A DNA stretch of 64,000 nt from a virus. The translations under genes were made by a program, and so were the position numbers. Under the pieces are notes generated by a model that did no database searches, was not told the origin of the DNA, and worked only from the letters and a program-made list of their open reading frames with translations. The stretch lies in the UHGV virus genome UHGV-1367859; one strand, 5' to 3'. Of this stretch, positions 2,650-50,779 are shown piece after piece; position 1 is the stretch's first letter, and every line of letters begins with the position of its first letter.

Positions 2650-5600
2650 TTATAATTCTCCAAGAAGGATTGCACCTCCACATATATCCTCATTATTAGC
2701 ATCCCTGTAGCTATCATTAGGAGCTATATCAGTGATACTATTTGAACTTGCAGATGCAGAAGAAGGTGCTTCTCCATACACAGATTCAAAGGCACTAGAA
2801 GCAGCAAGAGAAGCCATTGCCTCATAAGAGTAAGCCTCAGAATAGTCTGGCATAGACTCCAGCATTTCTGCTGTAAGTCCATTATCAGTAAACTGGGCTG
2901 CATACTCTGCAAGAGGGTCATAATTCTTCTTATTCTTGTCAATTACTGTCTCTATCTCTGAAGCAAGCTTACCATACTCATACTCCAAGAAACTGTTCTT
3001 ATATCCTAGAGGTTCAATTCTAGTATATATAGCACTATTGTCTCCTGGGAGAGTATCAGTATTATCAAAGCTAGTTGATTGTCTGTAATAATACCATCTA
3101 CCTTTGATTCTCTTACCTATAAAGTTAAAAAACTCATAAGTGACATTGCCTTCATCATCTCTTTGTTCCTTCTTGACAGCAGCCTTGTCTCCAAAAGTAG
3201 AGCTAGAATCAATGGTGATTACTATCTCATCCTTGATATTACCCTCATCATCTACAAACTTGGTTGCAGCTGTTTCAGGTATTTCAGGAACAAGTCTTCT
3301 ATTGTCAAGATGGTTATATACATATTGCTCTACAAACTCTTCATAGTTGTCCTCGTGAGTAAGGAGGTCTCTCAGAGTAGAAATATATCCTGGGATAGCA
3401 TCTCTTACTGCTGTAGGAGCAAGATGAATAAATGTAGAGGGACCAAATGCAAAGCCATTTCTGTAGTAGCTGTAGAGGAACAAGTTGAGAGCAAGTTCTT
3501 GAGCTTTAGGATTCTCCATATACAACAGGGTAGCCCAATCTCTCATATATCTTTCTCTCAGTGTAGAACTTAACTGTCCTACATTCTTGAACACAATCAC
3601 ATCAACAGGATTCTTGTCATTGTGAAGAGCTGTTTTGAGTCTCCGCACAAATTCAAGCTCAGCTATATCTTCATTATCATTCACAATCTGCTTGAAGTAA
3701 GTTGGGAAGTTGTTGATGAAATCCCTCCTCTTTTCAGCAGAAGATACTACTTTGCCACTCTTGCTTATACCACTTCCAAAGAACTCAGTCTTTGACATGA
3801 TGTAGGCAAGAAGGTCATTGTAAATACTGTTAATAGTCTTCACATTGAGCTTTCCTGTCTTAGTCATTTGTCTAAGTCCCTCAAAGATAAGGTTACCTTC
3901 ATTGTCATATTTTCCATCAAGAACCTCTTGGAATGGTCTTGAGAATTGAGGGAAATACCTTCCCATCATCCTCTCAGTCTGTCTAAGACCAAGAGTATAG
4001 AAAGCTTGAAGGAAGGGAAGAGGACTGTTGAGTAACTGTTCTCTCATTGCATCAATATCACCAGTGTATCCAAGGTGGTCTCTTATGACATTTGCATTAA
4101 CCAATGGAAACTTCCCATTAGTATATACACTTGTCAGAAGGTCATCAACCTTTTGTAACTTAATCATAGTGTCAGCAATAGTAGGGCCAGCAGCACCACC
4201 TTGGGTATCTGCTCTTGTAGCTTGTACTAACTGTCCAAGTGCATCAGCAGTGCTCATGATTCTCTTGAAGAGAAGACCTACAGCAACCTGTCTCCTATAG
4301 AAGTTTACTCTGTCTTTTTGAGACATAGTACCTACCTCTTTATAGAGTTGAATATCGCCCATGAGCATTTCAAATTCAAATGGATTGTTCTTTACATTTA
4401 CCCACGAAAGATTTTCATACATACCAGCATACTTTATAGTGTCTGCAAGTACTTCCTCTATAACAGTGTCCTTTGACTTTCCATCTCTAGAGTCTCTGAA
4501 GAACTTCCTTGTTATCTCCATGACAATAGGCTGCCTCATTAAGATAGCAATCTCAGTGGGGTTGTAGCCAAGTCTTGAGAGAAGCATAGAAGCATCTCCA
4601 GTGAAGGTATTCTGATTGGTAGCATGAAGAGTGTTATCCTTGACATTATCCACAGAGGCAGCCAAGAAGTTAGCAGTGTTTCTTGAGATGAAGTCACCAC
4701 TTTCATTCTTGACACCATGAAGTGAAGTTCTCTTTACTCCACCAAGGTTGAAAGCTCCATTCATATCATTTACAGCAAGTTGAGTATGCTGCATCAGAGC
4801 ATGGCTGGCATTATGGTTAGCATAGATACCAATCATCTTACCACCTGTCATGTTCTGTTGATGAAGAGTCACTTGTGTTCTAGGGGAAAGAGGGTCTAAC
4901 CTTCTCTTAGCCTTTGAAGCAAGTTTATCAAGAGCCTTAAGGTTACTTGTGTCTTTAGACATCCTAAGAATGTCTGCAACAGTATAACCTTTCTTGGCAA
5001 GTTCCTCTTTTGTCATAGAGTCAAGGATAGTAACAACTCTGGCTGCCATCTTCTGCTTGTCAAAACCACCAGGGTTAAGAATCTTTGATGCAGTATCAGA
5101 GTTAGTGAGAATACCCCACATCATGTCAATTAAGGCATTGTTCCTTGCCTCAAGTGACTGTTCCTGTGGTAATTTATCATAGTCATATCTCACCTTCTCG
5201 ATGCTTCTACCCAAGAAGTAATCCGATTTTCTATTCTTGAACCAAGTAGAGAATCTCTTCTGAGCAGTTGCAGAGAGCTGATACTTCTTTATCCCTTGTC
5301 CTTGAATGAACTCAAGATAGTCATCAATGTCAAGGTCTGAATCATCAGGATGTTTAGACTTGTAGTCTTCAAGACCTGCCTCAAGAACACCTTGAATCTC
5401 TTCAGAGATGTCAGCATTAGCTGGGTCAGTATAGAAGTCATCCCATGCTGCTTTGATGTCATACTCTTTTCTAAGTTTGAACTCAGGCAACATGATGTAA
5501 AGTTTATCCACGTCAAAGTCTGAACCAGACAGAGTAGTAATTTCAGCAGGTAGCATAATAGCAGAACCATTCTGTTGAGGAAGGAATCCCTTGATATATA

Positions 5601-8600
5601 GAGGAACCATTGAGTACTTATCCTCAGTTGGAACTCTATAGCCAATAAGTCTCCTAAGCTCCTCAGGCAACTTTCTGACATCAAGCTGACCATCTTCCCC
5701 CATCAGAGGCTCATAGAACTCTCTAGAGTATGCAGGCATGTAACATTCAAGATACTTGATTCTCTTGTTCTCACCTTCACCCTCATAAACTATCTTGAGC
5801 TTATCTGTTACACCATAGGCTGATACCTGAATCAAGGCACCACCTCTGATTTTCTGCTTGGTGATTCTACTCTTTATGATACTGTTAAGAAGAGTCTGAA
5901 CTCTCTGAGACTGGACAGGGTCATACAATGGAATGTTGAACTCTCCATTCTCATTAAGAGTACAGGCTCTTAACATATCAATACCATATCTCTGATTTCC
6001 TCTGATTTCCTCAAGGAGAATCTTCTCAACCTCTTTAGGGTCTTTGAAGATGTCATCCACTTCTTTGAAGGCTTGCAGGATATTCTCAGTGTTAATAGCA
6101 TTATACAACCTTAGCCATTCGGCTTTAGTCATGGTCTTGTTACCAACAGTTATCTGAGCATCATCTGCAATGTCAGCAGTAATCAGCTTCCTTATCTGAG
6201 TACCTACAAGCTGTACAGCATCAATAGCATGTTCAGGAGTAGCAGTCTGAATACCATAGTCTTCGTAACTTACTTTGTGCACTACATTAGGATTCTCCAT
6301 ACCATGAGCTATACCAGTAGTATTACCAAGAACTTTCATAGTGGTTTCATAATCCCTTGCACCATTAAGATTTATAACTCCTTGCTTTCCAACCTTAGTA
6401 GTAGACTCAAACTGAACTACATCAATTTGATTCTTCTCCATAAAGTCATTAATAGCTTTGAGCTTGCTAGACTTACCAAGAGGTCCAGAAATAGCATCAT
6501 GCAGTGCAAGAAGCAAGAACTCCGAGTTCTTATGCTGTACTGGAGTCTTTATGCCAGTGTGTCCTGGAACACCACTGTCATTATTGACCTGAGTATAGAC
6601 ATAAGGTTTCTTAGTCTGCCATATGATGTTGAAGTCTTCCATAGTCCATTGACCATTAGGGTCTGTAAGGTGTTTGTAGGCAGTTTCCATCTCATCTGTC
6701 CACTGACCCATCATACCAAGCATGGCTCTGTAAGAACTAAGACTTCTATATGCTTGAGCATCTGCAACATTGACCTTCTCAAACTGACTTAAGATATAAT
6801 CTCTCTCAATTTCAGTCATCTCCTTCTTTGCAATTTTTGCATCAAGGATTTCTTTGATGTCTGATATTGTAGAAGATACAATCTCATCATCAGCAAGATA
6901 GATAGTTCTCTCCCATGTTCTTCCTATAGTCTCACCTCTGAACCTAGCCATTGTGTTAAGTCTAAGGGAAGGAGCATGAACTTCCTTATACCTCTTCTGA
7001 AAATCCTCTATGTCCTTATAGAAAGCAAGGTCAGTAGTGGTCATCTGAATGATTTGGGAAGTAGCAAACTTGCTGTTCCAATAATACTCTCTAAGAGCGT
7101 CTTTGGAGTTATTCTTTGTTGTAAGGTTCCTTGTAATGGAGTTTAAGTCAGAAACTGATAGTTCCCCTCTTGTTACCTTATCATTGAGGATTTCCTTTAT
7201 CTGGTCGAATATCTCATTAGCTTGTCTATCATTAATTGGTTTATTATTGTTATACCTATCAAGGAGGACCATCATATCTGTAGTGAACATATCACCAAGA
7301 ACTTTCTGAGCTTCCTTGAGGGATTTAGCAACTTTCTGATTGGTTTGAGATTGTCCTTGGAAAGGGATGTGCTTGAATTTGCCATTAGGGAGTTCATCTA
7401 GAAGACCCATGTTAGCCCACTCTGTATAAGTAGACTCAAAGCCTTCTTCCATAATAGTTTCAAGAGTGTCTAGTAAGAATTGTCTGAACTGAGAAGGACT
7501 ACTTTGTCTCAGTCTTGCAAACCTATCCAAGAATGTTTCACCATTCTCATATTGTATGTTGTTAAGTTCTGGAATAAACTTGAACTCAGCTCCACCAAGA
7601 CTCTTGATTTCACCTTTTCCATCTCTTTTGATGTCAAAGTTGGCAATAGGAGAGATGTTTGCACCACTAAGATACATCTCATCTCTTTTCCTTACAAGCA
7701 TGATTCTATCATACTCCTGGTTAACAATATCAAGCATCTTGTCAAGAATGATTTCTTGATAGGTTCTCCTGTTACCATCTTCATCTGTTTCAGAGCCTGT
7801 AGTGTATCTTACAAACCTGATGAACTCAGCAGAAGGAGAGTCCGAGAGAATTGGTACATGGTACCAAGCCATCCTCTCTTTAGGCTCTGCCCAATATTCA
7901 TTAAGGAGAACTATGGTGTAATCAAGGTCATCCCAGTCCTGATAAGCAATCTTATCATGATTAAGTACTACTTTATGTTGCAATGCTTTTCTCATAGCAG
8001 GGTCAGTAACCAGCTTTTCAATCCAGTCACTTCTCCATCTGCCACCTTTATAGAACCATTCATATTGCTTGAACTCCTCTTGAATGAACTTCTCAAACCT
8101 CTCTTGATTATTCATCACATTCTTAAGCTGCTTGATAAGCTTGCCAAGATAGGAAGGAGTAACATGAGAAAAGTAAGTTTTCTCATTCTCTCTTACACTA
8201 CCCTCAATAGCATCCTCTGTAACTTCTGCAAGCATAGAAGCAATCTCATTGTATGCAGAGCCAAAGGTATTGATAAGGTCTCCTCTCTTGACAGTACCAT
8301 CTTCAGCAGTCTCTGATTTAACCTGTCCTTTCTGCACACCACTAAAGATGATATTCAGCTGGGGAAGAAGAAGCATGATAGGGTCAGTAAATGTAATACC
8401 AGGAGCTTCCTTGATATTAGTAAGAGCAGTTCTCAAGATTGCTGGGTTAGGGTCTATACCTATCATATTGAAGGTCTTCATGAGCTTATTCCAAACCTCT
8501 TCCTGCTCAAGGAGGTCAAGCCTTTCCTGAGTAGTTTTATTTTGAAACTCATTATTAAGTTCTTCAACTATAGTAAGACCTTTCTCAGCATTCTCCCTAT

Positions 8601-10482
8601 TGATTTCTCCATTCTTCTCATAGACACTATCCTCATCAAGTTGAGTACCACTTTCATAGTTACTTCTCCAAGAATCAAGAAGATAGTAGACTCCTTCTGG
8701 TTTGTTCACAGAGATAGTCTCTATCTTGAATGTGCCATCAGGGTTCGTCACCTTCTTCTGAATCCAGTACTGGACATAATCCTTTCTGAAATCCTGATAG
8801 AATTGAGAGAAGAGGGAGTCATCACTATTGACAATTTTCACTATCTGCTTAACCCAAGGTTTGAGTTTTGCAAGGTCTTCGAGGAGAGGAATCATATCTT
8901 CAGAAGTTATCATATATCTCAGCTTGTCAATCAGAGTAGCATGAACAAAGTCAGCATCAAGGTATCTATTGTTACCCAAGTCATCCTTCTCATACTTTCC
9001 CCTATAATCAAGACTGGGAGTCTCTCTGATAATCTTCCTTACAGCTTGTGACAGTGACTCACGAGAACTTACCTGTCTGAAGTTGGTCATCCAGCCATCT
9101 TTAACAGTTTCTTCTTTACCATAATCATCAGCTTGATTATCTACTTCACTTTCTCCTTCAGGGGTGTCCTCATTGAGATTGGCATCTTCGAGAGTGACAT
9201 AGTTGGGGCCTACTCTGATACCTTCTGTCATAATTAACAGACCACTTGCTTCCTCTGCCAAAGGTCTGAAATGCTCGAGTAGCTTTTGATACTCTTGGAA
9301 CTTATATGCAGCTTTCTTTTTAGCTGCTGCAAGTTTCTTTTCATCAGAGTACTTCTCTGCACCTTTAGAAGCATTTATTTTAGCAAGCTCTGCCTGTATC
9401 CTTCCTTCTTCTGTGTCACTATTGTAACTCTCAAAGATAGCTCTTACTCTGTTAAAGATATCACCAGGAGTGAGGTCCTTTATTATTTGGAATCTATCAA
9501 GTGAGTAAAGTTCCCTTCTCAAGTCCTCTCTTTGTTTAGCAGTAAGTTCTTCTTCCATCATCCTTCTATTGATGATGTCTTGCTTCTCTTTAAGAGCAGC
9601 ATCTATTTCACTACTGAATAGTCTAGAGATAAGAGTTACTCTGTCTCTTCTTACTCTTGGGTCAAAGACAAGGTCAACTGCTTTCTGCTCTGAAAGAGAA
9701 GAAATAGGAGTTCTCTCAAAGGAAGTAGTATCAAGAGTTGGGGTCTCTTGTTGCTCAGGGAGATGTGCACCAAATAGAGCATCATCCAGCATTTCTGTTG
9801 CTGATTGCCCTGAGACTATCCCTATCTGGGATAATTTACCCTGAAGATACTGGTAGAGTAAGGGAGTCCTTTCCATAGAAATATTGGAGATGTTAGTATT
9901 GAAGAAGCCATCAGCACTTCCAATAACTATCCTCTTATACTTCCCAGTATTCCACTCCTTAACAATATCTTCGATTTCAGAGTCTATTACTTTTTGAAAC
10001 TCAGCAATATCAGCATCTGTCCATCTTCCAGACACACCTTTAGCCCCCTCATGATACCATCTCTGAGTACTTATAGGCATAGCATTATCCAATCCCCTAA
10101 GCACAGCTTGGGTCATAGTAGGATAGTGCTTATCCCTACCATACTTTTGAGCATATTTAGACATTGGGCCTATAAGACCTCGTCCACTATCTCTATCAGT
10201 GTTATCAGTAAAGATGTAAAGGGACTCTGGGTCTCTTGCAACCTCTGACCTAGTCCAATTTCCTCTGTGGCTCACAATAGTAGGAGAGATGAGTGTAGGA
10301 AACTTTGAACCTCTTAGCTCACTCATGAACTTTCTAAGTTCAGACACCAAAGGCATCTCTTTAACTCTGTTAGGATTTGCCTCCCACCAAAGACCGAGCA
10401 AATTAGCTATGGTCTGAGGAGTTTCATTTTCAAAGTGGGAAGCAAACTCTTTGATTGTATCAGTTATTTCTACACAATTCAT
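2650..10482 (-). CDS. giant ~2610-aa protein, candidate virion-packaged RNA-polymerase-like protein of crAss-like phages
   Basis: ORF track 2650..10509 is TTG-extended; first ATG at 10482 (MNCVEIT...). Contains SGSDFDVDKLY, a DxDxD metal-binding loop resembling the DFDGD catalytic loop of two-barrel RNAPs. TAA stop at 2650. Size is typical of crAss giant proteins. Confidence 0.5.
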   Translation of the reverse strand: MNCVEITDTIKEFASHFENETPQTIANLLGLWWEANPNRVKEMPLVSELRKFMSELRGSKFPTLISPTIVSHRGNWTRSEVARDPESLYIFTDNTDRDSGRGLIGPMSKYAQKYGRDKHYPTMTQAVLRGLDNAMPISTQRWYHEGAKGVSGRWTDADIAEFQKVIDSEIEDIVKEWNTGKYKRIVIGSADGFFNTNISNISMERTPLLYQYLQGKLSQIGIVSGQSATEMLDDALFGAHLPEQQETPTLDTTSFERTPISSLSEQKAVDLVFDPRVRRDRVTLISRLFSSEIDAALKEKQDIINRRMMEEELTAKQREDLRRELYSLDRFQIIKDLTPGDIFNRVRAIFESYNSDTEEGRIQAELAKINASKGAEKYSDEKKLAAAKKKAAYKFQEYQKLLEHFRPLAEEASGLLIMTEGIRVGPNYVTLEDANLNEDTPEGESEVDNQADDYGKEETVKDGWMTNFRQVSSRESLSQAVRKIIRETPSLDYRGKYEKDDLGNNRYLDADFVHATLIDKLRYMITSEDMIPLLEDLAKLKPWVKQIVKIVNSDDSLFSQFYQDFRKDYVQYWIQKKVTNPDGTFKIETISVNKPEGVYYLLDSWRSNYESGTQLDEDSVYEKNGEINRENAEKGLTIVEELNNEFQNKTTQERLDLLEQEEVWNKLMKTFNMIGIDPNPAILRTALTNIKEAPGITFTDPIMLLLPQLNIIFSGVQKGQVKSETAEDGTVKRGDLINTFGSAYNEIASMLAEVTEDAIEGSVRENEKTYFSHVTPSYLGKLIKQLKNVMNNQERFEKFIQEEFKQYEWFYKGGRWRSDWIEKLVTDPAMRKALQHKVVLNHDKIAYQDWDDLDYTIVLLNEYWAEPKERMAWYHVPILSDSPSAEFIRFVRYTTGSETDEDGNRRTYQEIILDKMLDIVNQEYDRIMLVRKRDEMYLSGANISPIANFDIKRDGKGEIKSLGGAEFKFIPELNNIQYENGETFLDRFARLRQSSPSQFRQFLLDTLETIMEEGFESTYTEWANMGLLDELPNGKFKHIPFQGQSQTNQKVAKSLKEAQKVLGDMFTTDMMVLLDRYNNNKPINDRQANEIFDQIKEILNDKVTRGELSVSDLNSITRNLTTKNNSKDALREYYWNSKFATSQIIQMTTTDLAFYKDIEDFQKRYKEVHAPSLRLNTMARFRGETIGRTWERTIYLADDEIVSSTISDIKEILDAKIAKKEMTEIERDYILSQFEKVNVADAQAYRSLSSYRAMLGMMGQWTDEMETAYKHLTDPNGQWTMEDFNIIWQTKKPYVYTQVNNDSGVPGHTGIKTPVQHKNSEFLLLALHDAISGPLGKSSKLKAINDFMEKNQIDVVQFESTTKVGKQGVINLNGARDYETTMKVLGNTTGIAHGMENPNVVHKVSYEDYGIQTATPEHAIDAVQLVGTQIRKLITADIADDAQITVGNKTMTKAEWLRLYNAINTENILQAFKEVDDIFKDPKEVEKILLEEIRGNQRYGIDMLRACTLNENGEFNIPLYDPVQSQRVQTLLNSIIKSRITKQKIRGGALIQVSAYGVTDKLKIVYEGEGENKRIKYLECYMPAYSREFYEPLMGEDGQLDVRKLPEELRRLIGYRVPTEDKYSMVPLYIKGFLPQQNGSAIMLPAEITTLSGSDFDVDKLYIMLPEFKLRKEYDIKAAWDDFYTDPANADISEEIQGVLEAGLEDYKSKHPDDSDLDIDDYLEFIQGQGIKKYQLSATAQKRFSTWFKNRKSDYFLGRSIEKVRYDYDKLPQEQSLEARNNALIDMMWGILTNSDTASKILNPGGFDKQKMAARVVTILDSMTKEELAKKGYTVADILRMSKDTSNLKALDKLASKAKRRLDPLSPRTQVTLHQQNMTGGKMIGIYANHNASHALMQHTQLAVNDMNGAFNLGGVKRTSLHGVKNESGDFISRNTANFLAASVDNVKDNTLHATNQNTFTGDASMLLSRLGYNPTEIAILMRQPIVMEITRKFFRDSRDGKSKDTVIEEVLADTIKYAGMYENLSWVNVKNNPFEFEMLMGDIQLYKEVGTMSQKDRVNFYRRQVAVGLLFKRIMSTADALGQLVQATRADTQGGAAGPTIADTMIKLQKVDDLLTSVYTNGKFPLVNANVIRDHLGYTGDIDAMREQLLNSPLPFLQAFYTLGLRQTERMMGRYFPQFSRPFQEVLDGKYDNEGNLIFEGLRQMTKTGKLNVKTINSIYNDLLAYIMSKTEFFGSGISKSGKVVSSAEKRRDFINNFPTYFKQIVNDNEDIAELEFVRRLKTALHNDKNPVDVIVFKNVGQLSSTLRERYMRDWATLLYMENPKAQELALNLFLYSYYRNGFAFGPSTFIHLAPTAVRDAIPGYISTLRDLLTHEDNYEEFVEQYVYNHLDNRRLVPEIPETAATKFVDDEGNIKDEIVITIDSSSTFGDKAAVKKEQRDDEGNVTYEFFNFIGKRIKGRWYYYRQSTSFDNTDTLPGDNSAIYTRIEPLGYKNSFLEYEYGKLASEIETVIDKNKKNYDPLAEYAAQFTDNGLTAEMLESMPDYSEAYSYEAMASLAASSAFESVYGEAPSSASASSNSITDIAPNDSYRDANNEDICGGAILLGEL

Positions 10483-10506
10483 AAGCCTGTTATTAAAAGT
10501 TTTGTG

Positions 10507-10537
10507 CAAAGGTAAGTAAATTTCTTTATATAACCAA
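10507..10537 (-). promoter_or_regulatory. Bacteroidetes sigma-A type promoter (TTG-N20-TACCTTTG) upstream of the giant ORF
   Basis: Minus strand reads TTGGTTATATAAAGAAATTTACT-TACCTTTG-CAC. Same TTG-N20-TAnnTTTG architecture as four plus-strand sites in this window. Sits ~25 nt upstream of ATG 10482. Confidence 0.5.
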
Positions 10538-10747: not shown

Positions 10748-12580
10748 TCATATCAATCCTCTTTTGACAAACTCATCCATAAGTGAATCTGCAAGTTCCT
10801 GAGCTTGTGGATGAGGTTTTCCAGTTTCAGCAATCCTACTTCTGAGTCTAAAGAATTTCTTCCAATCAGATACAAACCCAGTTACAACTAATTCTGTCTT
10901 TAAGGAGTTTGGTAAAACAGTCCTTGCTTGCTGAGGAGTCCAACCCATTTTAAGAAGATTCATATAACTTGCTTCTGCATTTAACATTGCAGAACTCCAT
11001 TCCATATCAGGTACAGAAGGACCTTCTTGTTCCTTATTAGGACAATGAGTATTAACCCAGTTAGGAATAATAAAAGTAAGTTCATTTCCAAACTTATCCT
11101 TAGAATAGTTACAATACCTTGTACTTTCCTGAGCAAAAGAGAATACTCTGTGTCTTACAAATTCATGGGATACTCCCCTATCAGTTGTAAACCTCACAGT
11201 AATTCTCTTTTCATGATATTCTGTAGGTTCACAAAGATACTCAAGAACTCCTTGTAAGCCATGTTCTATAATTACTCTGTAGTTAGTCGTATAGTAGTAA
11301 TAATCTCCATCACTAGTATATTTCGTATAAGGATTTAGGCATAAAATACTCCAATTAGTGCCAAACTGGAACCCTTCATCTACAACACTATTAGGGACTT
11401 TAAGGTACACAGTACCATGCTCTAGCATTGCACAGTTACCACAGATAGAAGTAACCCCATTGTCACCTCTAACTATAATCAAGCCAGTAGAGACAGTAAC
11501 ACAATAAACTCTCTCTGTTTTATTAGTTATTCTAACTTTAGAGTCTGGGTTTCTACTATCATTGTTAATAGTATAATCAGTATCTAACAAAAGAATTTTA
11601 TACACAGGATTGTGTACAGGAGTTTCATGACAAATTCCTCTGAATGAGGCTGTATAACCGCCAATAGGGGCTACAGAGTTTATCCAATCTATGATGCTAT
11701 AGCTGGTGCTGGTAAAAGTAACAGTCTTGGTATTTACTCCAACACTCCCATCAGAGTTAATCAATCCTTTTATTATAGAATTAACAGCAATAGGGTCATC
11801 AGCTTTATACATCATTGGAATGTATTTACCATTATAATAAAACTGAGAATTAACCAGCTCTCCTATACCATCTCTAACTACTTTGTAATAATTTCCCTTA
11901 CCTATCTCAAATTTATACCCTAGCTCATTACATAGATTTATAAGATACTCTATTTTCCTGTCTTTCTTAAGATGGAATACTAACTTATTTATTGTATCTT
12001 TTTGGTAGCAACCATCTCCTAGCCAGAATCCTATTAGTTCATAGAAAGGGTTAGTGTAGATAGGTTTTGGACAATGTTTAGGAGATTTGAACATCCTCTC
12101 TCCAAGGGTCTTTTCTCTACCATTATTATCCTTATAGGATTGCCCACATACAAAGACATCATAGTAAGAACTATTATAAAAGTTATTTCTACTTTCTCTA
12201 AATAGCCCATACATTCTATGCCCATCTGTAACTTCTAAACCTAGTGATGGGTAGTAATAGAAGTTACCAGTGTATTCATGAGATATTACTCTAGTAGGGA
12301 ACTCAAAGCCAATAAATTGGCTAGAGTCTCTATCTACAACAGCTACTTTTTCTCCACTATAACTATGCCAAGGAACCCACCCTCTTTCAGTGAGAACCTC
12401 ACTACTACCTGTATAACAATGTTGAGAAGCAATCATCCTGTCAACAAAGTCCTTTGCTGTTTGACCCTCTGGCCTTTTACTTTTATAACAAGTCCTACCT
12501 GCCCTCTCTACAGCTTCATAGATACCATCTAAACCAGGACCTTGCTCATATATTTCAAAGGAAGGTTTGATTAGTTTCAT
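10748..12580 (-). CDS. thyX: FAD-dependent thymidylate synthase ThyX interrupted by an intein
   Basis: Exteins carry ThyX signatures: RTCYKS, H-[insert]-CAMLEHG (cf. GHxSxLEH) and RHRVFSFAQESTRY (RHR...S.QE.S.RY motif). The 328-aa insert begins CYTGSSEVLTERGW and ends ...ICGN followed by Cys. Joined exteins ~282 aa. Confidence 0.8.
   Translation of the reverse strand: MKLIKPSFEIYEQGPGLDGIYEAVERAGRTCYKSKRPEGQTAKDFVDRMIASQHCYTGSSEVLTERGWVPWHSYSGEKVAVVDRDSSQFIGFEFPTRVISHEYTGNFYYYPSLGLEVTDGHRMYGLFRESRNNFYNSSYYDVFVCGQSYKDNNGREKTLGERMFKSPKHCPKPIYTNPFYELIGFWLGDGCYQKDTINKLVFHLKKDRKIEYLINLCNELGYKFEIGKGNYYKVVRDGIGELVNSQFYYNGKYIPMMYKADDPIAVNSIIKGLINSDGSVGVNTKTVTFTSTSYSIIDWINSVAPIGGYTASFRGICHETPVHNPVYKILLLDTDYTINNDSRNPDSKVRITNKTERVYCVTVSTGLIIVRGDNGVTSICGNCAMLEHGTVYLKVPNSVVDEGFQFGTNWSILCLNPYTKYTSDGDYYYYTTNYRVIIEHGLQGVLEYLCEPTEYHEKRITVRFTTDRGVSHEFVRHRVFSFAQESTRYCNYSKDKFGNELTFIIPNWVNTHCPNKEQEGPSVPDMEWSSAMLNAEASYMNLLKMGWTPQQARTVLPNSLKTELVVTGFVSDWKKFFRLRSRIAETGKPHPQAQELADSLMDEFVKRGLI
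11435..12418 (-). mobile_element. intein with LAGLIDADG homing-endonuclease domain inside thyX
   Basis: N-terminal Cys (CYTGSSEV), block-B-like TDGH, two LAGLIDADG motifs (LIGFWLGDGCY, IKGLINSDGSVG), C-terminal ...VTSICGN|C. Penultimate residue is G, not H, so boundaries are +/- a few residues. Confidence 0.65.
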
Positions 12581-39603: not shown

Positions 39604-39650
39604 AGTTGTGGAGCATGAGGGAGTCGAACCCTCGTCTTACAAACTTCACA
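39604..39650 (-). pseudogene. tRNA 3'-half fragment (T-arm plus acceptor 3' strand) with no matching 5' half
   Basis: Minus strand reads ...AAGACGAGGGTTCGACTCCCTCATGCTCCA. Required 5' acceptor strand GGAGCAT is absent nearby. Confidence 0.35.
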
Positions 39651-40184
39651 TAAGAGAATTGTACATGCTTTTCAATTTGGAGTGTTTTCTTCACAGGGTT
39701 GACTAGTTGTCTTTCCACCACTCTGTTTTATTGTCCATAAACAGAGAAAAAGTTGGCTTACCTTCTCCGTGCATATCAGAGCTAATTAAGCACTAGGACC
39801 TCGGACTGCCAGTCTTAGTTTCCTTTCAGACTTTTGCACCTTTCTGTTTCCAAGCAAGTGCTGCTCAGAGTCAAGCTTATGCAGCCATTCTCACAGGAGT
39901 TTCATCAACTTCTGCATCTAAGTTTACTTGCTATTTATAGAGTATGCCCTCTTGCATGTTCTCTTACCTAATAATTTGCAATCAAATACCAGATATGCCC
40001 CAAATGTTGCTTCTTCAAAAAGAAAATCTTAAACAAAACTCCGAAGCAAGTTTTGTATTTAGCCTTATTCTTTACTAACCTTTTGTTTCTCTCCCTTGTA
40101 GTCTTCAATAAAGCGAACTTATCTTTTAGGAGCCTACATTAGAGTATGCAGGATACTGCCTTTTAGAGTCGAGGTCATGACTGT

Positions 40185-40652: not shown

Positions 40653-40672
40653 AATATATAAATTTATTTTAG

Positions 40673-40745
40673 TCTCCCCTCCCAGACTCGAACTGGGGTT
40701 TATGGTTTAGAAGACCATTGTTACTATCCGCTGAACTAAGGGGAG
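40673..40745 (-). tRNA. tRNA-Arg(UCU)
   Basis: Manual fold: acceptor CTCCCCT/AGGGGAG, anticodon arm ATGGT-CTTCTAA-ACCAT, T-arm CCCAG-TTCGAGT-CTGGG. TAACTTTG -7 box just upstream on minus strand. Confidence 0.7.
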
Positions 40746-40779
40746 TTATGCAAAGTTAGTAATAAATTTCTATACTATG

Positions 40780-40838
40780 AAATCCTTAGAGTTAAAGTAT
40801 CTTAAGTCTGTTGCTCTATCCATTTGAGCTATGGAACC
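40780..40838 (-). pseudogene. tRNA-like fragment (acceptor 5' strand plus canonical D-arm, anticodon stem unpaired, no T-arm)
   Basis: GGTTCCA-TA-GCTC-AAATGGATA-GAGC then ACAGA-CTTAAGA-TACTT (stem not complementary). Confidence 0.3.
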
Positions 40839-41008
40839 ATTTGCATCACTTCTTTACGTATATTGCTAATGCTACTAGATATATGGCATCAAGTGTCATA
40901 CCTATCAAATAGAATAGGCTGGCTACAGTAATTGCTATGCACTGAAAAATCAGTATTGCTTTCTCCATTGTTTCTGTTTTCATTTTCCTTCTTACTTTAA
41001 TTGTTTAG

Positions 41009-41082
41009 TACCCCCAGAAGGACTCGAACCTTCCACCTACAGTTTAGGAAACTGTTGCTCTATCCTGATGAGCTATGAGGGC
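41009..41082 (-). tRNA. tRNA-Arg(CCU)
   Basis: Manual fold: acceptor GCCCTCA/TGGGGGT (two G-U), D-arm GCTC..GAGC, anticodon arm ACAGT-TTCCTAA-ACTGT, T-arm GAAGG-TTCGAGT-CCTTC. Confidence 0.7.
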
Positions 41083-46221: not shown

Positions 46222-46293
46222 TGCCACTTGGTGTAATGGTCAGCACATCAGATTTTGGTTCTGAGTGTAAGGGTTCAAGTCCTTTAGTGGCAA
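46222..46293 (+). tRNA. tRNA-Gln(UUG)
   Basis: Acceptor TGCCACT/AGTGGCA (U1:A72), D-arm GTGT-AATGGTCA-GCAC, anticodon arm TCAGA-TTTTGGT-TCTGA, T-arm AAGGG-TTCAAGT-CCTTT. Confidence 0.75.
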
Positions 46294-46297
46294 CTAT

Positions 46298-46369
46298 GCT
46301 CCCTTAGTTCAATGGAAGAACAAGGGTCTTCTAAGCCCTAAGTTGTAAGTTCGAGTCTTACAGGGAGTA
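46298..46369 (+). tRNA. tRNA-Arg(UCU)
   Basis: Acceptor GCTCCCT/AGGGAGT, anticodon arm AGGGT-CTTCTAA-GCCCT, T-arm GTAAG-TTCGAGT-CTTAC. Confidence 0.7.
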
Positions 46370-46454
46370 CAAACTTGTTCGTGAAAAGAATGTAAATGGC
46401 AAAGAAGTGAGAATCATTACCTACCTAGCCTGTGAAGGTGCAAGTAGGGTGCAT

Positions 46455-46527
46455 GGTGCCATCTTCTAAATGGTCAGGAAACTGCCCTTTCAAGGCAGTA
46501 ATCTGGGTTCAAACCCCAGTGGCACTA
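46455..46527 (+). tRNA. tRNA-Glu(UUC)
   Basis: Acceptor GGTGCCA/TGGCACT, anticodon arm CTGCC-CTTTCAA-GGCAG, T-arm CTGGG-TTCAAAC-CCCAG. Confidence 0.7.
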
Positions 46528-46534
46528 CAATATA

Positions 46535-46609
46535 TAGCTCATGAAGTGTAATGGTTTTGCATATCACACTGTCAATGTGAGGGATGGGGTTCAATTCCCC
46601 CATGGGCTG
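46535..46609 (+). tRNA. tRNA-Asp(GUC)
   Basis: Anticodon arm TCACA-CTGTCAA-TGTGA, T-arm around GGGG-TTCAATT-CCCC. Acceptor register ambiguous by 1 nt. Confidence 0.6.
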
Positions 46610-46643
46610 CTGGCTATGTAACAAAGGCTCAGAGGAGCCAAAT

Positions 46644-46730
46644 GGAAGTCTAATCTATCAGGGATAGAAGCAGTCTTGAAAACTGAATGCTCATGTGAAA
46701 GTGGGTGGGGTTCGAGTCCTCAGGCTTCCT
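46644..46730 (+). tRNA. tRNA-Ser(UGA), class II long variable arm
   Basis: Acceptor GGAAGTC/GGCTTCC, anticodon loop CTTGAAA, T-arm TGGGG-TTCGAGT-CCTCA. 87 nt. Confidence 0.6.
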
Positions 46731-46732
46731 CT

Positions 46733-46930
46733 ATGATAACAATATTGAGAAGAGAAGGGTGGGTACTCAACCCTAATGATAAAGTAGTCAACTCAATACT
46801 TAAGAGAGTTGAACAGAACAATGGACTATGTCCCTGTCAGAATGACTCTGAGGATAAGCATTGTCCTTGTTCGAACTATAGAGTACTAGACCACTGTTGC
46901 TGCGGTTTATATAAGAAACTTGGAGAGTAA
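46733..46930 (+). CDS. small Cys-rich protein, ferredoxin-thioredoxin-reductase catalytic-subunit-like (CPC...CPC...HCC) candidate
   Basis: MITILRREGWVLNPNDKVVNSILKRVEQNNGLCPCQNDSEDKHCPCSNYRVLDHCCCGLYKKLGE. The ORF-track ORF 46676..46930 has a 5' extension overlapping tRNA-Ser. Confidence 0.35.
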   Translation: MITILRREGWVLNPNDKVVNSILKRVEQNNGLCPCQNDSEDKHCPCSNYRVLDHCCCGLYKKLGE

Positions 46931-47006
46931 TTTATCAAGGTGATAAACCTATCTGCTAAATAGTGTGGTCATTAATTTGGCTTTGGTTCGAGTCCAATGC
47001 TCTCCT
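46922..47006 (+). tRNA. tRNA-Ser(GCU), class II
   Basis: Acceptor GGAGAGT/GCTCTCC, D-arm TTATC..GATAA, anticodon loop CTGCTAA, T-loop TTCGAGT. Confidence 0.6.
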
Positions 47007-47012
47007 CAACAT

Positions 47013-47087
47013 AGAGTAGTAGGGTAATAGGTAACCCCCTTCATTTGGGATGAAGTGATACTGCAAGTTCGAGTCTTGTCTACTCTA
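47013..47087 (+). tRNA. tRNA-Pro(UGG)
   Basis: Acceptor AGAGTAG/CTACTCT (perfect), anticodon arm CTTCA-TTTGGGA-TGAAG, T-arm GCAAG-TTCGAGT-CTTGT. Confidence 0.7.
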
Positions 47088-47093
47088 CTTAAT

Positions 47094-47167
47094 GGGCGTT
47101 GTGGTGTAATTGGCTAACACATCTCCTTTGCAAGGAGAAGTTCAGGGTTCAAGTCCCTCATTGTCCA
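47094..47167 (+). tRNA. tRNA-Ala(UGC)
   Basis: Anticodon arm TCTCC-TTTGCAA-GGAGA, T-arm CAGGG-TTCAAGT-CCCTC. Acceptor has one mismatch. Confidence 0.6.
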
Positions 47168-47252
47168 CTTTGTTTTTCATGTTTTCATAAAATTGTAGGA
47201 CTGTTGTTAGTCCCTCTTTTCGGCAGTTAGAGGATAAAGAAACTGCCCACTT

Positions 47253-47323
47253 TGGGATATAGCTCGAAGGTCGAGCGTGAGACTGTTAATCTCTTGGTGA
47301 GAGTTCGATTCTCTCTATCCCAG
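47253..47323 (+). tRNA. tRNA-Asn(GUU)
   Basis: Acceptor TGGGATA/TATCCCA, D-arm GCTC-GAAGGTC-GAGC, anticodon loop CTGTTAA, T-arm GAGAG-TTCGATT-CTCTC. Confidence 0.7.
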
Positions 47324-47438
47324 CCTAATAAAGAGAATAGTACTAGTGTAAGACTCAACGTAACATGTTCAGATATTAGCTCTGTTCTGAGTGTCGTATA
47401 ACTCAACCTAGCTACAGGGGGTGGTTAAAGGTAGCAAC

Positions 47439-47483
47439 TGGTAGGTATGGTACTAGTAAAAGTTCGATTCTTTTACCTACCAC
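47439..47483 (+). pseudogene. tRNA-like minihelix (7-bp acceptor stem plus T-arm, no D or anticodon arm) immediately 5' of the HNH gene
   Basis: GGTAGGT-ATGGTACTAGT-AAAAG-TTCGATT-CTTTT-ACCTACC-A, only 43 nt. Upstream 115 nt has no other tRNA parts. Confidence 0.3.
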
Positions 47484-47484
47484 T

Positions 47485-47961
47485 ATGAGAAGAAAAGGTA
47501 CAAGTAAAGTATATAGTATCTCTGATAAGGAGTTTATAAATTTAATAAATAGAGTTAATAGTTACTCTGATGCCCTGAGAGCATTAGGACTAACTACTAA
47601 AGGGGGTTCTTCACAAGATGTCTTGAAAAGAAGAATCCAAGAACTAGGATGTTCAACATCTCACTTTGGAGATGTAAGCATAAAATCTCCAACGCAAGTA
47701 TATCCCATTGAGAACATACTAGTAAAGAATAGTAGCTATGCTAATATAGCTTCACTTAAAAGAAGGCTTATAGACAATAAGTTGCTAAAATATGAATGCA
47801 GTAAATGTGGTATATCCTCGTGGAATGGTCAGCCACTATCTCTACATCTAGACCACATAAATGGTATAAATAATGACCATAGATTAGAGAATTTAAGATT
47901 CTTATGCCCTAACTGTCATTCACAGACAAGTACATACGCAGGTAAAAACAAAAGAAAATAA
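47485..47961 (+). CDS. HNH homing endonuclease
   Basis: LHLDHINGINNDHRLENLRFLCPNCHS is an HNH core. Embedded between tRNA-Asn and tRNA-Trp. Confidence 0.8.
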   Translation: MRRKGTSKVYSISDKEFINLINRVNSYSDALRALGLTTKGGSSQDVLKRRIQELGCSTSHFGDVSIKSPTQVYPIENILVKNSSYANIASLKRRLIDNKLLKYECSKCGISSWNGQPLSLHLDHINGINNDHRLENLRFLCPNCHSQTSTYAGKNKRK

Positions 47962-47970
47962 TCATTACTC

Positions 47971-48042
47971 ATTGGTGTAGTGTTAATGGTAGCACAGTGA
48001 ACTCCAAATTCACAAGTGAGGGTTCGATTCCTTCCACCTTTG
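47971..48042 (+). tRNA. tRNA-Trp(CCA)
   Basis: D-arm GTGT-TAATGGTA-GCAC, anticodon arm GTGAA-CTCCAAA-TTCAC, T-arm GAGGG-TTCGATT-CCTTC. Acceptor has 2 mismatches. Confidence 0.55.
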
Positions 48043-48048
48043 CCACAT

Positions 48049-48122
48049 TGGGATATAGCTTAGATGGTTAAAGCATCTGACTGATATTCAGAAGACCGTA
48101 GGTTCAAGTCCCACTATCCCAA
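48049..48122 (+). tRNA. tRNA-Ile(GAU)
   Basis: Acceptor TGGGATA/TATCCCA, D-arm GCTT..AAGC, anticodon arm TCTGA-CTGATAT-TCAGA. Confidence 0.7.
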
Positions 48123-48124
48123 CT

Positions 48125-48196
48125 GTACTAGTAGCTTAATGGTAAAGCACCACACTGTGAATGTGGAAGATGTGAGTTCAATTCTCACCTAGCACC
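48125..48196 (+). tRNA. tRNA-His(GUG)
   Basis: Anticodon arm CCACA-CTGTGAA-TGTGG, T-arm GTGAG-TTCAATT-CTCAC, discriminator C. Confidence 0.65.
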
Positions 48197-48204
48197 CCAA
48201 CATA

Positions 48205-48279
48205 TGGATGTATCCCCTGTGTCTTATACACACTAGAAAGGGTAGTTGGTCACACGCAGGTTCAAGCCCTGCCATCCAT
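48205..48279 (+). ncRNA. atypical tRNA-like gene: perfect acceptor (ATGGATG/CATCCAT) and T-arm (GCAGG-TTCAAGC-CCTGC), hairpin TGTGT-CTTATAC-ACACA (UAU), no recognisable D-arm
   Basis: Manual folding. Could be tRNA-Ile(UAU)-like with a noncanonical core, or a degenerate copy. Confidence 0.3.
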
Positions 48280-48338
48280 ACAATACTCATGAGTGGCATA
48301 GTAGTCCCTGGGGTGGTTTCAAACTGCTATGTCTGTAT

Positions 48339-48410
48339 CTCTAGGATTCCGAATGGTTAGGAGCTGGTCTGCAAAACCAGTATTTGTGGGTTCAATTCCC
48401 ACCCTAGAGT
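48339..48410 (+). tRNA. tRNA-Cys(GCA)
   Basis: Acceptor CTCTAGG/CCTAGAG, anticodon arm CTGGT-CTGCAAA-ACCAG, T-arm GTGGG-TTCAATT-CCCAC. Confidence 0.7.
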
Positions 48411-48522
48411 CCTTGGAGGAGCAGGTAGTCTATCCATGGAAAAACCTCCGTAAAAACAGCTACAATTGACTACTAAGGAGAAGGAAGGGATAAATAACTC
48501 CTTAACAAATACCCTTCTACCA

Positions 48523-48594
48523 CTTCCTATAGCTCAATGGTAGAGCTACTGACTCTTAATCAGAAGGTTCAAGGTTCAAATCCTTGTAGGAAGA
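48523..48594 (+). tRNA. tRNA-Lys(CUU)
   Basis: Acceptor CTTCCTA/TAGGAAG, D-arm GCTC-AATGGTA-GAGC, anticodon loop CTCTTAA, T-arm CAAGG-TTCAAAT-CCTTG. Confidence 0.7.
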
Positions 48595-48776
48595 CATAAC
48601 ATTTTAATTAAATAACAGTGTTATGAGAGTACTTAGATTTATTAAGAAAGCAGTCAAAGCTTATTTTAGAATGACTGCTGAGAACTATTCTATAAGGTGT
48701 ACAGGTGATGTATTTATACCTGTCCCTTAAGGATAGTTCCTCCTTCCTCTCTGACAAGTTATTTGATAATAAATAT

Positions 48777-48857
48777 GGGAGTATCGCGTAGTGGCAATCG
48801 CAGTTGACTGTAAATCAACCCTCTAAGAGTTCATAGGTTCGAGTCCTTTTGCTCCCA
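48777..48857 (+). tRNA. tRNA-Tyr(GUA), long variable arm
   Basis: Acceptor GGGAGTA/TGCTCCC, anticodon arm GTTGA-CTGTAAA-TCAAC, T-loop TTCGAGT. Confidence 0.65.
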
Positions 48858-48922
48858 CTTCAATAGAACTTTGGCTTTTATCTATAAGCCTGACAGGGGT
48901 AGAGACCTGAATAGATAATATT

Positions 48923-48995
48923 GGAACTTTGGTGTAGATGGTTTGTCACATCAGATTGAAGCTCTGAGGGCTGGGGTTCGACTCCCTGAGGTTCC
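48923..48995 (+). tRNA. tRNA-Phe(GAA)
   Basis: Acceptor GGAACTT/AGGTTCC, anticodon arm TCAGA-TTGAAGC-TCTGA, T-loop TTCGACT. Confidence 0.7.
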
Positions 48996-49019
48996 ACTAC
49001 ATAGTAAAAAGAGAAAGAT

Positions 49020-49619
49020 ATGGTAATAAAAAGAGGGGATAAAGGTCCTAATGTAAAGCTCCTTCAGAGGAAGCTTAATCTGAAAGATGATGGAATATTT
49101 GGACCTCTCACAGAAGAAGCAGTCAAAGAATTTCAGAAGGCTAATGGTCTTGTTGTAGATGGCATAGTGGGAAATAACACATGGTCTAAGCTGAATGTAA
49201 CTCAGAACAAGAGGAATATAAAGGAAATTATAGTTCATTGTTCTGCTACTCCTGAAGGTGAGGACTTTACTACTGCGCAGATTAAGCAATGGCACCTTCA
49301 AAGAGGTTTCTCTGATATAGGTTATCATTATGTAATCTATAGAGATGGGTCAATACATGCTGGTAGACCAGAGGCTATATCTGGAGCACACTGTACTGGG
49401 CACAATACAATGTCTATTGGAGTATGCTATATCGGAGGATGTGCCAAGGATGGAAAAACTCCAAAAGATACTAGAACTGAAGCTCAAAAAGCTGCTCTAG
49501 TACAGCTTCTTAAACAGCTTAAAGCAAAGTACCCTAATGCTACAATACATGGCCATAGGGAGTTTGCAAATAAAGCATGTCCAAGTTTTGATGCTAAAGC
49601 AGAATATACTTCTCTCTAA
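49020..49619 (+). CDS. N-acetylmuramoyl-L-alanine amidase (Amidase_2/PGRP) with N-terminal peptidoglycan-binding domain; endolysin
   Basis: PG_binding_1-like GDKGPNVKLLQRKLNLKDDGIFGPLTEEAV...NNTWSKL. Amidase_2 core HCSATPEG...GYHYVIYRDG...HGHREF...ACPSFD. Confidence 0.8.
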   Translation: MVIKRGDKGPNVKLLQRKLNLKDDGIFGPLTEEAVKEFQKANGLVVDGIVGNNTWSKLNVTQNKRNIKEIIVHCSATPEGEDFTTAQIKQWHLQRGFSDIGYHYVIYRDGSIHAGRPEAISGAHCTGHNTMSIGVCYIGGCAKDGKTPKDTRTEAQKAALVQLLKQLKAKYPNATIHGHREFANKACPSFDAKAEYTSL

Positions 49620-49634
49620 AAAGAGAGACAATAA

Positions 49635-49716
49635 GCCTCTGTGGTGAAATGGTAAACACAAGGGACTTAAAATCCCTCGGATTTAATCCTTGAGGGTTCA
49701 AATCCCTCCAGAGGTA
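49635..49716 (+). tRNA. tRNA-Leu(UAA), class II
   Basis: Acceptor GCCTCTG/CAGAGGT, anticodon arm AGGGA-CTTAAAA-TCCCT, T-arm GAGGG-TTCAAAT-CCCTC. Confidence 0.7.
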
Positions 49717-49720
49717 CAAT

Positions 49721-49807
49721 GCCCCCTTGGTGGAATGGTAGACACGCTGGTCTTAGGAACCAGTATGAAGTAATAGTAGTGTGAGGGTTCGAGTCTCTCA
49801 GGGGGTA
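49721..49807 (+). tRNA. tRNA-Leu(UAG), class II
   Basis: Acceptor GCCCCCT/AGGGGGT, anticodon arm CTGGT-CTTAGGA-ACCAG, T-arm GAGGG-TTCGAGT-CTCTC. Confidence 0.7.
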
Positions 49808-50253
49808 CTGAAATAAGAAATTAAGTATTTATATAACATTGAGTTTTACTGTAAATATTCAGGTGGCGTAATTCATGTTATCATAACCCCTTTACTATTT
49901 GTAAAAGTATGAAATACACAGTTTAGTATAATAAACAGAAATATCAAGTAGACATATCTGATAATAATATAGCTATTTATGATTCCTATAAAATCACTTC
50001 ATTATCTGATATGAGTAGTTTCTCATTCATTTAAAAGCTAGATTTTACCCATACAGTTCTATTAATAACAGAACTATGTTTAGCTTACTTAATGAATGGA
50101 GAACTCACAATTTATTATATTCTCTTGGTGTTCAAAAAGAAAGAACTGCTAGTGTAGACCTGGAGTCTAATCAATCTTGGTATATGACCGTAGCTTATGC
50201 TATATTATCTCCATTTTATTTACACTTTTATTAAAAATTTATTATCAATTTAT

Positions 50254-50284
50254 TTGGTAATTTAAATTATTTTTCATACCTTTG
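50254..50284 (+). promoter_or_regulatory. Bacteroidetes-type promoter (TTG-N20-TACCTTTG) dedicated to the suppressor tRNA
   Basis: TTG 50254-56, TACCTTTG 50277..50284. tRNA starts 18 nt downstream. Confidence 0.5.
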
Positions 50285-50301
50285 CATTGTTAATAAAATA
50301 T

Positions 50302-50706: not shown

Positions 50707-50779
50707 GCTTCCTTAGTTCAGCTGGTAGAACTACTGTTTTGTACTCAGTATGTCAGGGGTTCGAGTCCTCTAGGAAGCT
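50707..50779 (+). tRNA. tRNA-Thr(UGU)
   Basis: Acceptor GCTTCCT/AGGAAGC, D-arm GTTC-AGCTGGTA-GAAC, anticodon loop TTTGTAC, T-arm AGGGG-TTCGAGT-CCTCT. Confidence 0.65.

Follow-up and report, generated by a model that had tools for sequence, protein, structure and literature searches.

A predicted self-splicing intein with a Gly-Asn terminus in the ThyX of a crAss-like phage

Introduction

The ThyX gene in a stretch of 64,000 nucleotides from the virus genome UHGV-1367859, which is called the window here, encodes a protein of 610 amino acids (aa), and an earlier note on this DNA, made from the sequence alone, proposed that it is split by an intein that ends in Gly-Asn (GN) instead of the usual His-Asn (HN). 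The question that this locus raises is whether the insert in ThyX is an intein and, if it is, how it would be spliced without a penultimate His. We establish here the insertion, its boundaries, its fold, the conservation of its catalytic set, its membership in a clade, and its sporadic distribution. Judged by its sequence and its modelled structure, the 328-residue insert is a real intein and self-splicing is predicted. It is very likely a functional mobile intein in the GH-x-x-x-LEH motif of the ThyX of a crAss-like phage, with splicing assisted in the way that we propose below.

The insert in ThyX and its boundaries

The open reading frame (ORF) of the precursor is made up of the following parts.

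10748..12580, minus strand: ThyX precursor ORF (N-extein, intein, and C-extein), 610 aa and a TGA stop codon at 10748-10750
12419..12580, minus strand: N-extein, ThyX residues 1-54, ending ...RMIASQH, the first half of the GH-x-x-x-LEH motif
11435..12418, minus strand: intein, ORF residues 55-382 (CYTG...ICGN), exactly 328 aa, HINT domain with a nested LAGLIDADG domain
10748..11434, minus strand: C-extein, ThyX residues 383-610 (CAMLEHG...RHRVFSFAQESTRY...), and the stop codon

The reading frame is unbroken across the 610 codons and has no in-frame TAG. When the window protein was aligned with gp54, the intein-free ThyX of phage crAss001, it showed a single insert of 328 residues between His54 and Cys383. 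Deletion of residues 55-382 left a ThyX of 282 aa that aligned end to end with gp54 (E = 2e-111, 55% identity), and the junction was gapless, being RMIASQH-CAMLEHG in the window and RMIKSGH-GAMLEHG in gp54. The earlier note had claimed that ThyX motifs flank an insert of 328 aa in this ORF and had named an alignment to an intein-less ThyX as the check, and the alignment with gp54 bears the claim out. In addition, 120 intein-free homologues of ThyX were found, the nearest of which is 82% identical. The +1 position is legible in 116 of them and is Gly in 72, Tyr in 37, Asn in 5, and Trp or His in the others, but in none of the 116 is it Cys, whereas all the full-length intein-bearing crAss alleles have Cys there. 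Since Cys at +1 is confined to the intein-bearing alleles, this is the pattern that would be expected if the need for splicing maintains it. There is only one HN dipeptide in the ORF, in H323-N324-P, and since it precedes block F and no nucleophile follows it, there is no alternative canonical junction. The insert is thus in frame, begins with Cys55, has T118-x-x-H121, ends with N382 followed by C383, and has a HINT fold in the model. The penultimate residue (G:6), Gly381 in ORF numbering, departs from the consensus His, which is a consensus and not a requirement.

The exteins retain all the ThyX motifs, and the RHRxxSxxxxSxR signature is present downstream of the intein as RHRVFSFAQESTRY at ORF residues 476-489. 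Pfam Thy1 (PF02511) matched the precursor with E = 4e-28, the match being confined to residues 460-605, and it matched the protein spliced in silico better, with E = 5e-32. NCBIfam TIGR02170 gave 75.8 bits with the precursor, which is under its cutoff of 87.9. In DNA and protein searches of cultured phages the exteins matched the ThyX of crAss-like phages with about 50-58% aa identity. These phages include Steigviridae such as crAss001 and the PhiCrAssBcn isolates, in which the ThyX gene has about 300 codons. The host of the intein is a crAss-like, Steigviridae-related, Bacteroides phage.

Splicing motifs, endonuclease motifs, and fold

The motifs of the insert are given below in intein numbering except where the ORF is named.

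12380..12418, minus strand: block A, CYTGSSEVLTERG, with Cys1 as the predicted N-terminal nucleophile
12206..12247, minus strand: block B, SLGLEVTDGHRMYG, with Thr64 (B:7), His67 (B:10), Arg68 (B:11), and Met69 (B:12, not Trp)
12011..12037, minus strand: LAGLIDADG motif 1, LIGFWLGDG (ORF 182-190), with the acidic Asp present
11747..11773, minus strand: LAGLIDADG motif 2, IKGLINSDG (ORF 270-278), with an Asp that is invariant in the family, in Pfam LAGLIDADG_3
11465..11512, minus strand: block F, RVYCVTVSTGLIIVRG, with Cys306 at F:4, where Asp is the usual residue, and the clade-conserved Arg317
11432..11455, minus strand: block G, VTSICGN then C, with Cys326 (G:5), Gly327 (G:6), Asn328 (G:7), and ORF Cys383 as +1

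All the elements that the earlier note had listed, namely, Cys1, a TxxH block, two LAGLIDADG motifs, and ...ICGN followed by Cys, are thus present. In ORF numbering block B reads T118-D-G-H121-R-M, and in block F a Gly of the window intein aligns with the His that the intein in gp22 of Corynebacterium phage P1201 has in that block. A model of the intein built with AlphaFold2 from 29 family members (pLDDT 91.4, pTM 0.89) consists of a HINT domain and a LAGLIDADG endonuclease. The best matches to this model in the PDB, found with Foldseek, were the endonuclease-bearing inteins TliVMA, PI-SceI, PhoVMA, and PI-PfuI (E = 1e-13 to 1e-10), and next came the free-standing LAGLIDADG enzymes I-DmoI and I-Tsp061I (E ~3e-5). 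Pfam LAGLIDADG_3 (E = 1e-5) matched the insert, at residues 268-299 in ORF numbering. With two motifs that both carry acidic residues the insert has the make-up of a double-motif LAGLIDADG homing endonuclease, a type marked by two such helices in an alpha-beta-beta-alpha-beta-beta-alpha core, and cleavage is predicted from the motifs and the model.

The Gly-Asn terminus in the clade

Used as a query against 5.8 billion proteins, the intein gave 54 homologues with 24-80% identity, and all of those that reach the C-terminus end either in ...(I/V)CGN followed by C or in ...SGN followed by C or S. In an alignment of 29 sequences, which spans 24-80% identity and two host proteins, Cys1, Thr64, His67, Asp223 (the Asp of LAGLIDADG motif 2), Cys306, Gly327, and Asn328 are invariant, and this catalytic set is kept even in the 24% identical members located in a metallophosphoesterase. 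When the family profile was searched against 1.84 billion cluster representatives, 757 were found at E <= 1e-30 and 8,131 at E <= 1e-10. The best 148 proteins of this search contain 176 complete domains, from which the following counts were made.

Cys1: 176/176
Thr or Ser at B:7: 175/176
His at B:10: 175/176
Cys at F:4: 172/176 (the others are 3 Ser and 1 Asp)
Clade Arg after block F: 164/176
Penultimate Gly (G:6): 168/176 (His in 4)
Terminal Asn: 175/176
Ser, Cys, or Thr at +1: 176/176

At the place of the block-F His of P1201, 120 of these domains have Gly and 25 have His. Among the sampled sequences the hosts of the clade include ThyX, subunits of ribonucleotide reductase (RNR), DNA polymerases, RNA polymerase subunit 2, MCM, and a primase-helicase, and a single protein carries up to 3 inteins. 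The window intein shows the full signature of the clade, which is Cys1, T-x-x-H, V-Y-C-x-T-V, a V-R-(R/G)-x-G hairpin, and x-G-N followed by S, C, or T. Read from these sequences, GN is a rule of the clade that is under selection and not a product of decay, and the window intein is, by its motifs, a further member of a large, already sampled, and mostly viral clade.

The earlier note was thus right that the penultimate residue is Gly. Its description of GN as atypical holds against the textbook consensus but not within the intein's own clade, where 168 of the 176 domains have Gly, and Bethlehem gp51 provides an experimental precedent (PMC5050341). According to the literature an intein can do without the penultimate His (PMC5050341, PMC7891396, PMC7664689). 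A literature search on penultimate glycine in inteins brought up one relevant paper, Kelley et al. 2016.

Proposed mechanism of splicing

Splicing itself, the roles of Arg68 and Cys306, and the activity of the endonuclease are proposed here by homology. The gene would be translated as a precursor of 610 aa from which the intein of 328 aa would excise itself, leaving a ThyX of 282 aa with a Cys scar where intein-free alleles have Gly or Tyr. The first step would be an N-S acyl shift at Cys1 aided by Thr64 and His67 of block B, the second the transfer of the acyl group to Cys+1, the third the cyclization of the terminal Asn328, and the last an S-N shift that finishes the peptide bond. The absence of the penultimate His would be compensated, and the candidate for this is Arg68 of block B (B:11), which would touch the carbonyl of the C-scissile bond as its counterpart does in the AceL NrdHF intein, with Gly327 giving it space. 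Cys306, which stands between the junctions in place of the usual Asp, would coordinate the steps or carry an intermediate thioester.

Of the relatives with a solved structure, the split intein AceL NrdHF (PDB 6ZGQ; Hoffmann et al. 2020, PMC7891396) comes closest. In its crystal structure Arg69 (B:11) is 2.5 Å from the C-scissile carbonyl and hydrogen-bonded to it, the R69A mutant splices more slowly, and the G145H mutant has no activity (PMC7891396). Since H67-R68-M69 of the window intein is the same as H68-R69-M70 of AceL NrdHF, the block-B Arg is the best-supported helper of Asn cyclization, and by this homology Arg68 reaching over to the C-terminal junction is the best-supported way in which cyclization would be assisted. 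The earlier note had suggested that cyclization is either non-canonical or assisted; the latter is the best reading, given the contact made by the block-B Arg of AceL NrdHF and the loss of activity caused by G145H (PMC7891396).

Some of our results weigh against this proposal. The HINT and intein-splicing models (N- and C-terminal) of Pfam and NCBIfam gave no match at E <= 1-10 either with the precursor or with the isolated intein, and the only families that these libraries found on the two were LAGLIDADG_3, Hom_end, and Thy1. Since the standard HINT models are silent, the intein assignment rests on structure prediction, motifs, and homologues. Further, the residue at B:11 is variable across the clade, being R in 80, N in 33, K in 32, and T in 11 of the 176 domains, and therefore Arg cannot be a universal replacement for the penultimate His. 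Lastly, because AceL NrdHF uses the class 3 route, the order of the thiol steps in the window intein, which bears Cys1, is uncertain.

Searches of PDB sequences gave little more. With phmmer the intein found nothing at E <= 10, the full-length profile of the family gave marginal matches to the endonuclease region of PI-SceI (E = 0.04), and a profile of the HINT domain alone gave one significant match, which was AceL NrdHF 6ZGQ (E = 7e-5). In the automated annotation of the homologues PF02511 or PF14528 appears alone, despite the hundreds of clusters in the clade. As the intein models of Pfam and NCBIfam miss the clade, annotation pipelines will call an over-long ThyX or a LAGLIDADG protein, and the junctions given here allow the mature ThyX to be predicted correctly.

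Class 1, class 3, and other explanations

Class 3 inteins are defined by the absence of a nucleophile at position 1. The window intein has Cys1, which is invariant in the clade, and in place of the Trp-Cys-Thr (WCT) triplet of class 3 it has Met (B:12), Cys (F:4), and Cys (G:5), so that the Cys at F:4 is the sole residue shared. By these residues we file it as class-1-like, and membership in class 3 (WCT) was rejected on three positions, namely, 1, B:12, and G:5.

A different matter is whether a class 3 or hybrid route is used, in which Cys306 attacks the N-scissile bond or relays the acyl group from Cys1 to Cys+1. The near-invariance of Cys at F:4 (172/176), with Ser, still a nucleophile, in three of the four exceptions, would fit such a route. 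So would AceL NrdHF, which has an M-C-(T/S/C) triplet, no block-F His, a G-N end, and a class 3 mechanism, and which is dead when Cys124 is changed to Ala or Ser (C124A, C124S; PMC7891396); 6ZGQ is also the only significant match by sequence in the PDB and the top mini-intein match by Foldseek. However, all 176 domains have Cys1, for which a purely class 3 mechanism has no need, the Trp at B:12 and the Thr at G:5 of WCT are absent, and the Bethlehem gp51 intein, which has the same signature, was treated as class 1 by Kelley et al. (PMC5050341). We therefore consider a class 3 or hybrid route unlikely. If it were true, the clade with GN and Cys at F:4 would differ in mechanism from ordinary class 1 inteins.

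AceL NrdHF has lost Cys1 and has the block-F Cys alone, but both are kept in the clade, and so the clade could form a bridge between the mechanisms of class 1 and class 3, with either an obligate relay from Cys1 through Cys F:4 to +1 or redundant routes of entry, an idea to which we give only a small chance. The clade statistics (Cys1 in 176/176, Cys F:4 in 172/176, and penultimate Gly in 168/176) frame the question of what the block-F Cys does. Class 3 inteins that have Cys1 are reportedly the subject of work by Tori and Perler in 2011, and we know of no formal description of a bridge subclass with both Cys1 and a block-F Cys. The potential for novelty is confined to the coexistence of these two residues across the clade.

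Conditional splicing, in which Cys1, Cys306, Cys326, and Cys+1 form disulfides or bind a metal so that the maturation of ThyX is gated by redox state or metal in an anaerobic host, is improbable as well. Members of the crAss subfamily do have Cys at 1, F:4, G:5, and +1, the M-C-C triplet is found in 24 of the 176 domains, and redox-trapped inteins such as the class 3 DnaBi1 intein are documented (PMC6195587). Most members of the clade, however, have Ser or Thr at G:5, and +1 is Ser in 97 of the 176 domains, so a cluster of four Cys is not a requirement of the clade. Conditional splicing would in any case be compatible with assisted splicing as proposed above, as an addition to it and not a replacement.

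It is very improbable that the intein is decaying and dead for splicing, the loss of His being a symptom and ThyX a pseudogene or an inactive precursor. The textbook HN and the block-F His are indeed both missing, and the standard HINT profiles fail to recognize the element. Yet the ORF of 610 codons is uninterrupted, the exteins keep all the ThyX motifs, and GN, Cys1, TxxH, Cys F:4, and the +1 nucleophile are kept in hundreds of clusters and in homologues with as little as 24% identity; moreover, efficient splicing is known for inteins with a penultimate Gly (PMC5050341; PMC7891396). Finally, that the insert is a lineage-specific domain of ThyX, or that the junction was wrongly placed, with a canonical HN at another location, which the earlier note had named as what would refute an intein, is ruled out, with no point found in support, by the absence of the insert from 120 close ThyX homologues, by the gapless spliced alignment, and by the lone HNP at 323-324 upstream of block F.

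Mobility of the intein and related ThyX alleles

If the element in ThyX is the functional mobile intein that we take it to be, its predicted endonuclease would cut the intein-free ThyX alleles of co-infecting phages and so bring about homing. Across the alignment of 29 sequences neither LAGLIDADG motif has lost its acidic residues. In several relatives the intein is 72-79% identical to that of the window and the flanking exteins, compared over the 54-aa N-extein and about 85 aa of the C-extein, are 41-69% identical. Since the intein is more alike than the exteins, and the closest ThyX overall has no intein, the distribution shows the sporadic pattern expected of homing. The GC content of the intein is 34.7% and that of the exteins 36.8%, and GC at third codon positions is similar; these values led us to reject a recent acquisition from a donor of foreign composition. 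The matching composition is consistent with circulation within crAss-like phages.

A scan of the window with Rfam at gathering thresholds found no group I intron, and therefore ThyX is interrupted here by the intein alone. In the relative Kolpuevirus 'frurule' (OQ198718) ThyX has a group I intron (RF00028, 74.1 bits; L003:1923-2308) right after ...CDRGVSH. Many of the intein-bearing metagenomic ThyX ORFs stop early with the same read-through tail, ...GVSHK-x-FVA and a stop, and other metagenomic ThyX ORFs end after ...RHK or ...ESTR. These ends point to introns at two or three places in the RHR motif; the proteins concerned by early ends or introns are P0002, P0003, P0011, P0013, P0016, P0020, P0023, P0035, P0036, and P0043. 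In another protein, P0033 (439 aa), the N-terminal 260 or so residues of the intein run straight into ...DRGVSHEFVRHRVFSF of ThyX, and the C-terminus of the intein and about 90 residues of the C-extein are missing. P0033 is either a deletion that kills both intein and ThyX or a chimera of assembly. With this intein, ThyX is added to TerL among the genes that mobile elements enter in crAss-like phages, and in relatives it also carries group I introns.

Other inteins and genome context

The TerL gene of the window lies at about 54576..58904 on the plus strand in one frame that has three in-frame TAG codons (56157, 56199, and 57267) and a TAA stop codon at 58902. In comparison with the intein-free TerL of PhiCrAssBcn17, to which it is 78% identical, it has two inserts.

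55557..56678, plus strand: TerL intein a, CVCAGTK...NNIVTHN then T, canonical class 1, with LAGLIDADG motifs and two TAGs inside
about 57426..58427, plus strand: TerL intein b, ...EASNNHIWLVY...GKCVTV...VVTHN then C
50302..50374, plus strand: suppressor tRNA with anticodon CTA, which reads UAG (labelled tRNA-Pyl by ARAGORN)

TerL intein b has no Cys1, and its Trp at B:12, Cys at F:4, and Thr-His-Asn followed by Cys are the WCT signature of class 3. The profile of the ThyX intein matches the TerL inteins in their endonuclease parts only, and so the three inteins are not copies of each other; judged by their motifs, they are of three different types. The earlier note had counted the ThyX intein as the third in the window, which the two TerL inteins confirm, and had called this an unusual density for a phage. 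The density is notable but it is already documented for crAss-like phages, whose genomes have up to 3 inteins and 14 introns each according to the part of Yutin et al. 2021 (PMC7886860) considered here. TerL is described there as a typical intein host in which inteins co-occur with TAG recoding, and no ThyX intein or GN terminus is described in that part. The findings given here leave current understanding intact.

The tRNA with the CTA anticodon belongs to an array of 21 tRNA genes at 46222..50939. Since TAG codons stand in the TerL frame and a CTA suppressor tRNA is present, late genes, TerL among them, are apparently translated with TAG recoded. Two further tRNA-Arg genes lie at 40672..41082 on the minus strand. 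A full-length match to transfer-messenger RNA (tmRNA; Rfam RF00023) was found at 39606..40001 on the minus strand with 69.5 bits, the gathering threshold being 47, and E = 6e-25, while ARAGORN made no call. A phage-encoded tmRNA in a phage that recodes stop codons may merit attention.

About 240 bp downstream of ThyX and on the same strand there is an ORF of 2619 aa at 2650..10509 (minus strand). It matches the 'putative RNA polymerase' region of the uncultured phage cr85_1 and sits where crAss001 has its giant RNA polymerase gene (gp50). The crAss001 genes gp51-53, which lie between the RNA polymerase and ThyX, are absent from the window.

Comparison with known inteins

P1201 gp22, which is annotated 'contains hypothetical intein', shares with the window protein the ThyX host, the conserved motif of insertion, and the combination of HINT and LAGLIDADG. 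It reads ...KHH, CYSSDTEVLT...VYCATV...VRRNGKPVWSGN, then SVLEH, and so has in common Cys1, a TPNH block B, VYCATV (Cys F:4), VRRNG, and ...SGN followed by S. Its intein matches the family profile end to end with 149.8 bits and is a clear member of the clade. It differs in being only about 27% identical to the window intein and in keeping the block-F His where the window has Gly. Its insertion point is also one codon further downstream, where the conserved ThyX Ser serves as +1, whereas in the crAss type there is Ala at that position and the Cys is supplied. We know of no splicing test of the P1201 ThyX intein. When P1201 gp22 (L002:1333-3156) was compared with 11432..12421 of the window, the site of P1201, shared by P0048, was between -3 and -2 relative to LEH, and the crAss-type site was between -4 and -3; both sites are found among the ThyX hosts of the clade.

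AceL NrdHF, the best mini-intein match in Foldseek and probably of phage origin, shares the ...PNH-R-M block B, the Cys at F:4 (Cys124), the lack of a block-F His, and the penultimate Gly then Asn (G145-N146). Unlike the window intein it has Ala1 instead of Cys1 and takes the class 3 pathway through the block-F Cys (PMC7891396). It is, moreover, split in nature and accompanied by a free-standing gene for a GIY-YIG endonuclease where the window intein has a nested LAGLIDADG domain, and its host is the beta subunit of RNR.

The class 3 WCT inteins, for example MP-Be DnaB (PMC2807308), share the Cys at F:4 and a strong association with phages, but the window intein has Cys1, Met and not Trp at B:12, and Cys and not Thr at G:5. 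The class 1 inteins PI-SceI, TliVMA, PhoVMA, and PI-PfuI have the same two-domain architecture and fold and match weakly by sequence in the LAGLIDADG part, but their F:4 residue is the canonical Asp, they end in His-Asn, and they are 11-15% identical.

The intein in Bethlehem gp51, a recombination directionality factor and metallophosphoesterase of a mycobacteriophage, reads ...GNHD, CSW...TANH...VWCLRV...LTGN, then S, and shares Cys1, the TANH block B, the Cys at F:4 in VWCLRV, and the GN end followed by Ser. It differs in its host protein and in that its match to the profile is weak and limited to the N-terminal part of HINT (21 bits against 3 sequences). Distant members of the window family, P0052-P0054, are located in a phosphoesterase similar to the host of the Bethlehem intein. 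The Bethlehem intein splices completely, and G316H slows its splicing; phage inteins often carry Gly, Lys, or Ser at the penultimate position (Kelley et al. 2016, PMC5050341). Next to it, the ThyX intein of the window, with its predicted splicing, would be one more natural case of an intein with a penultimate Gly, in line with the penultimate His being dispensable.

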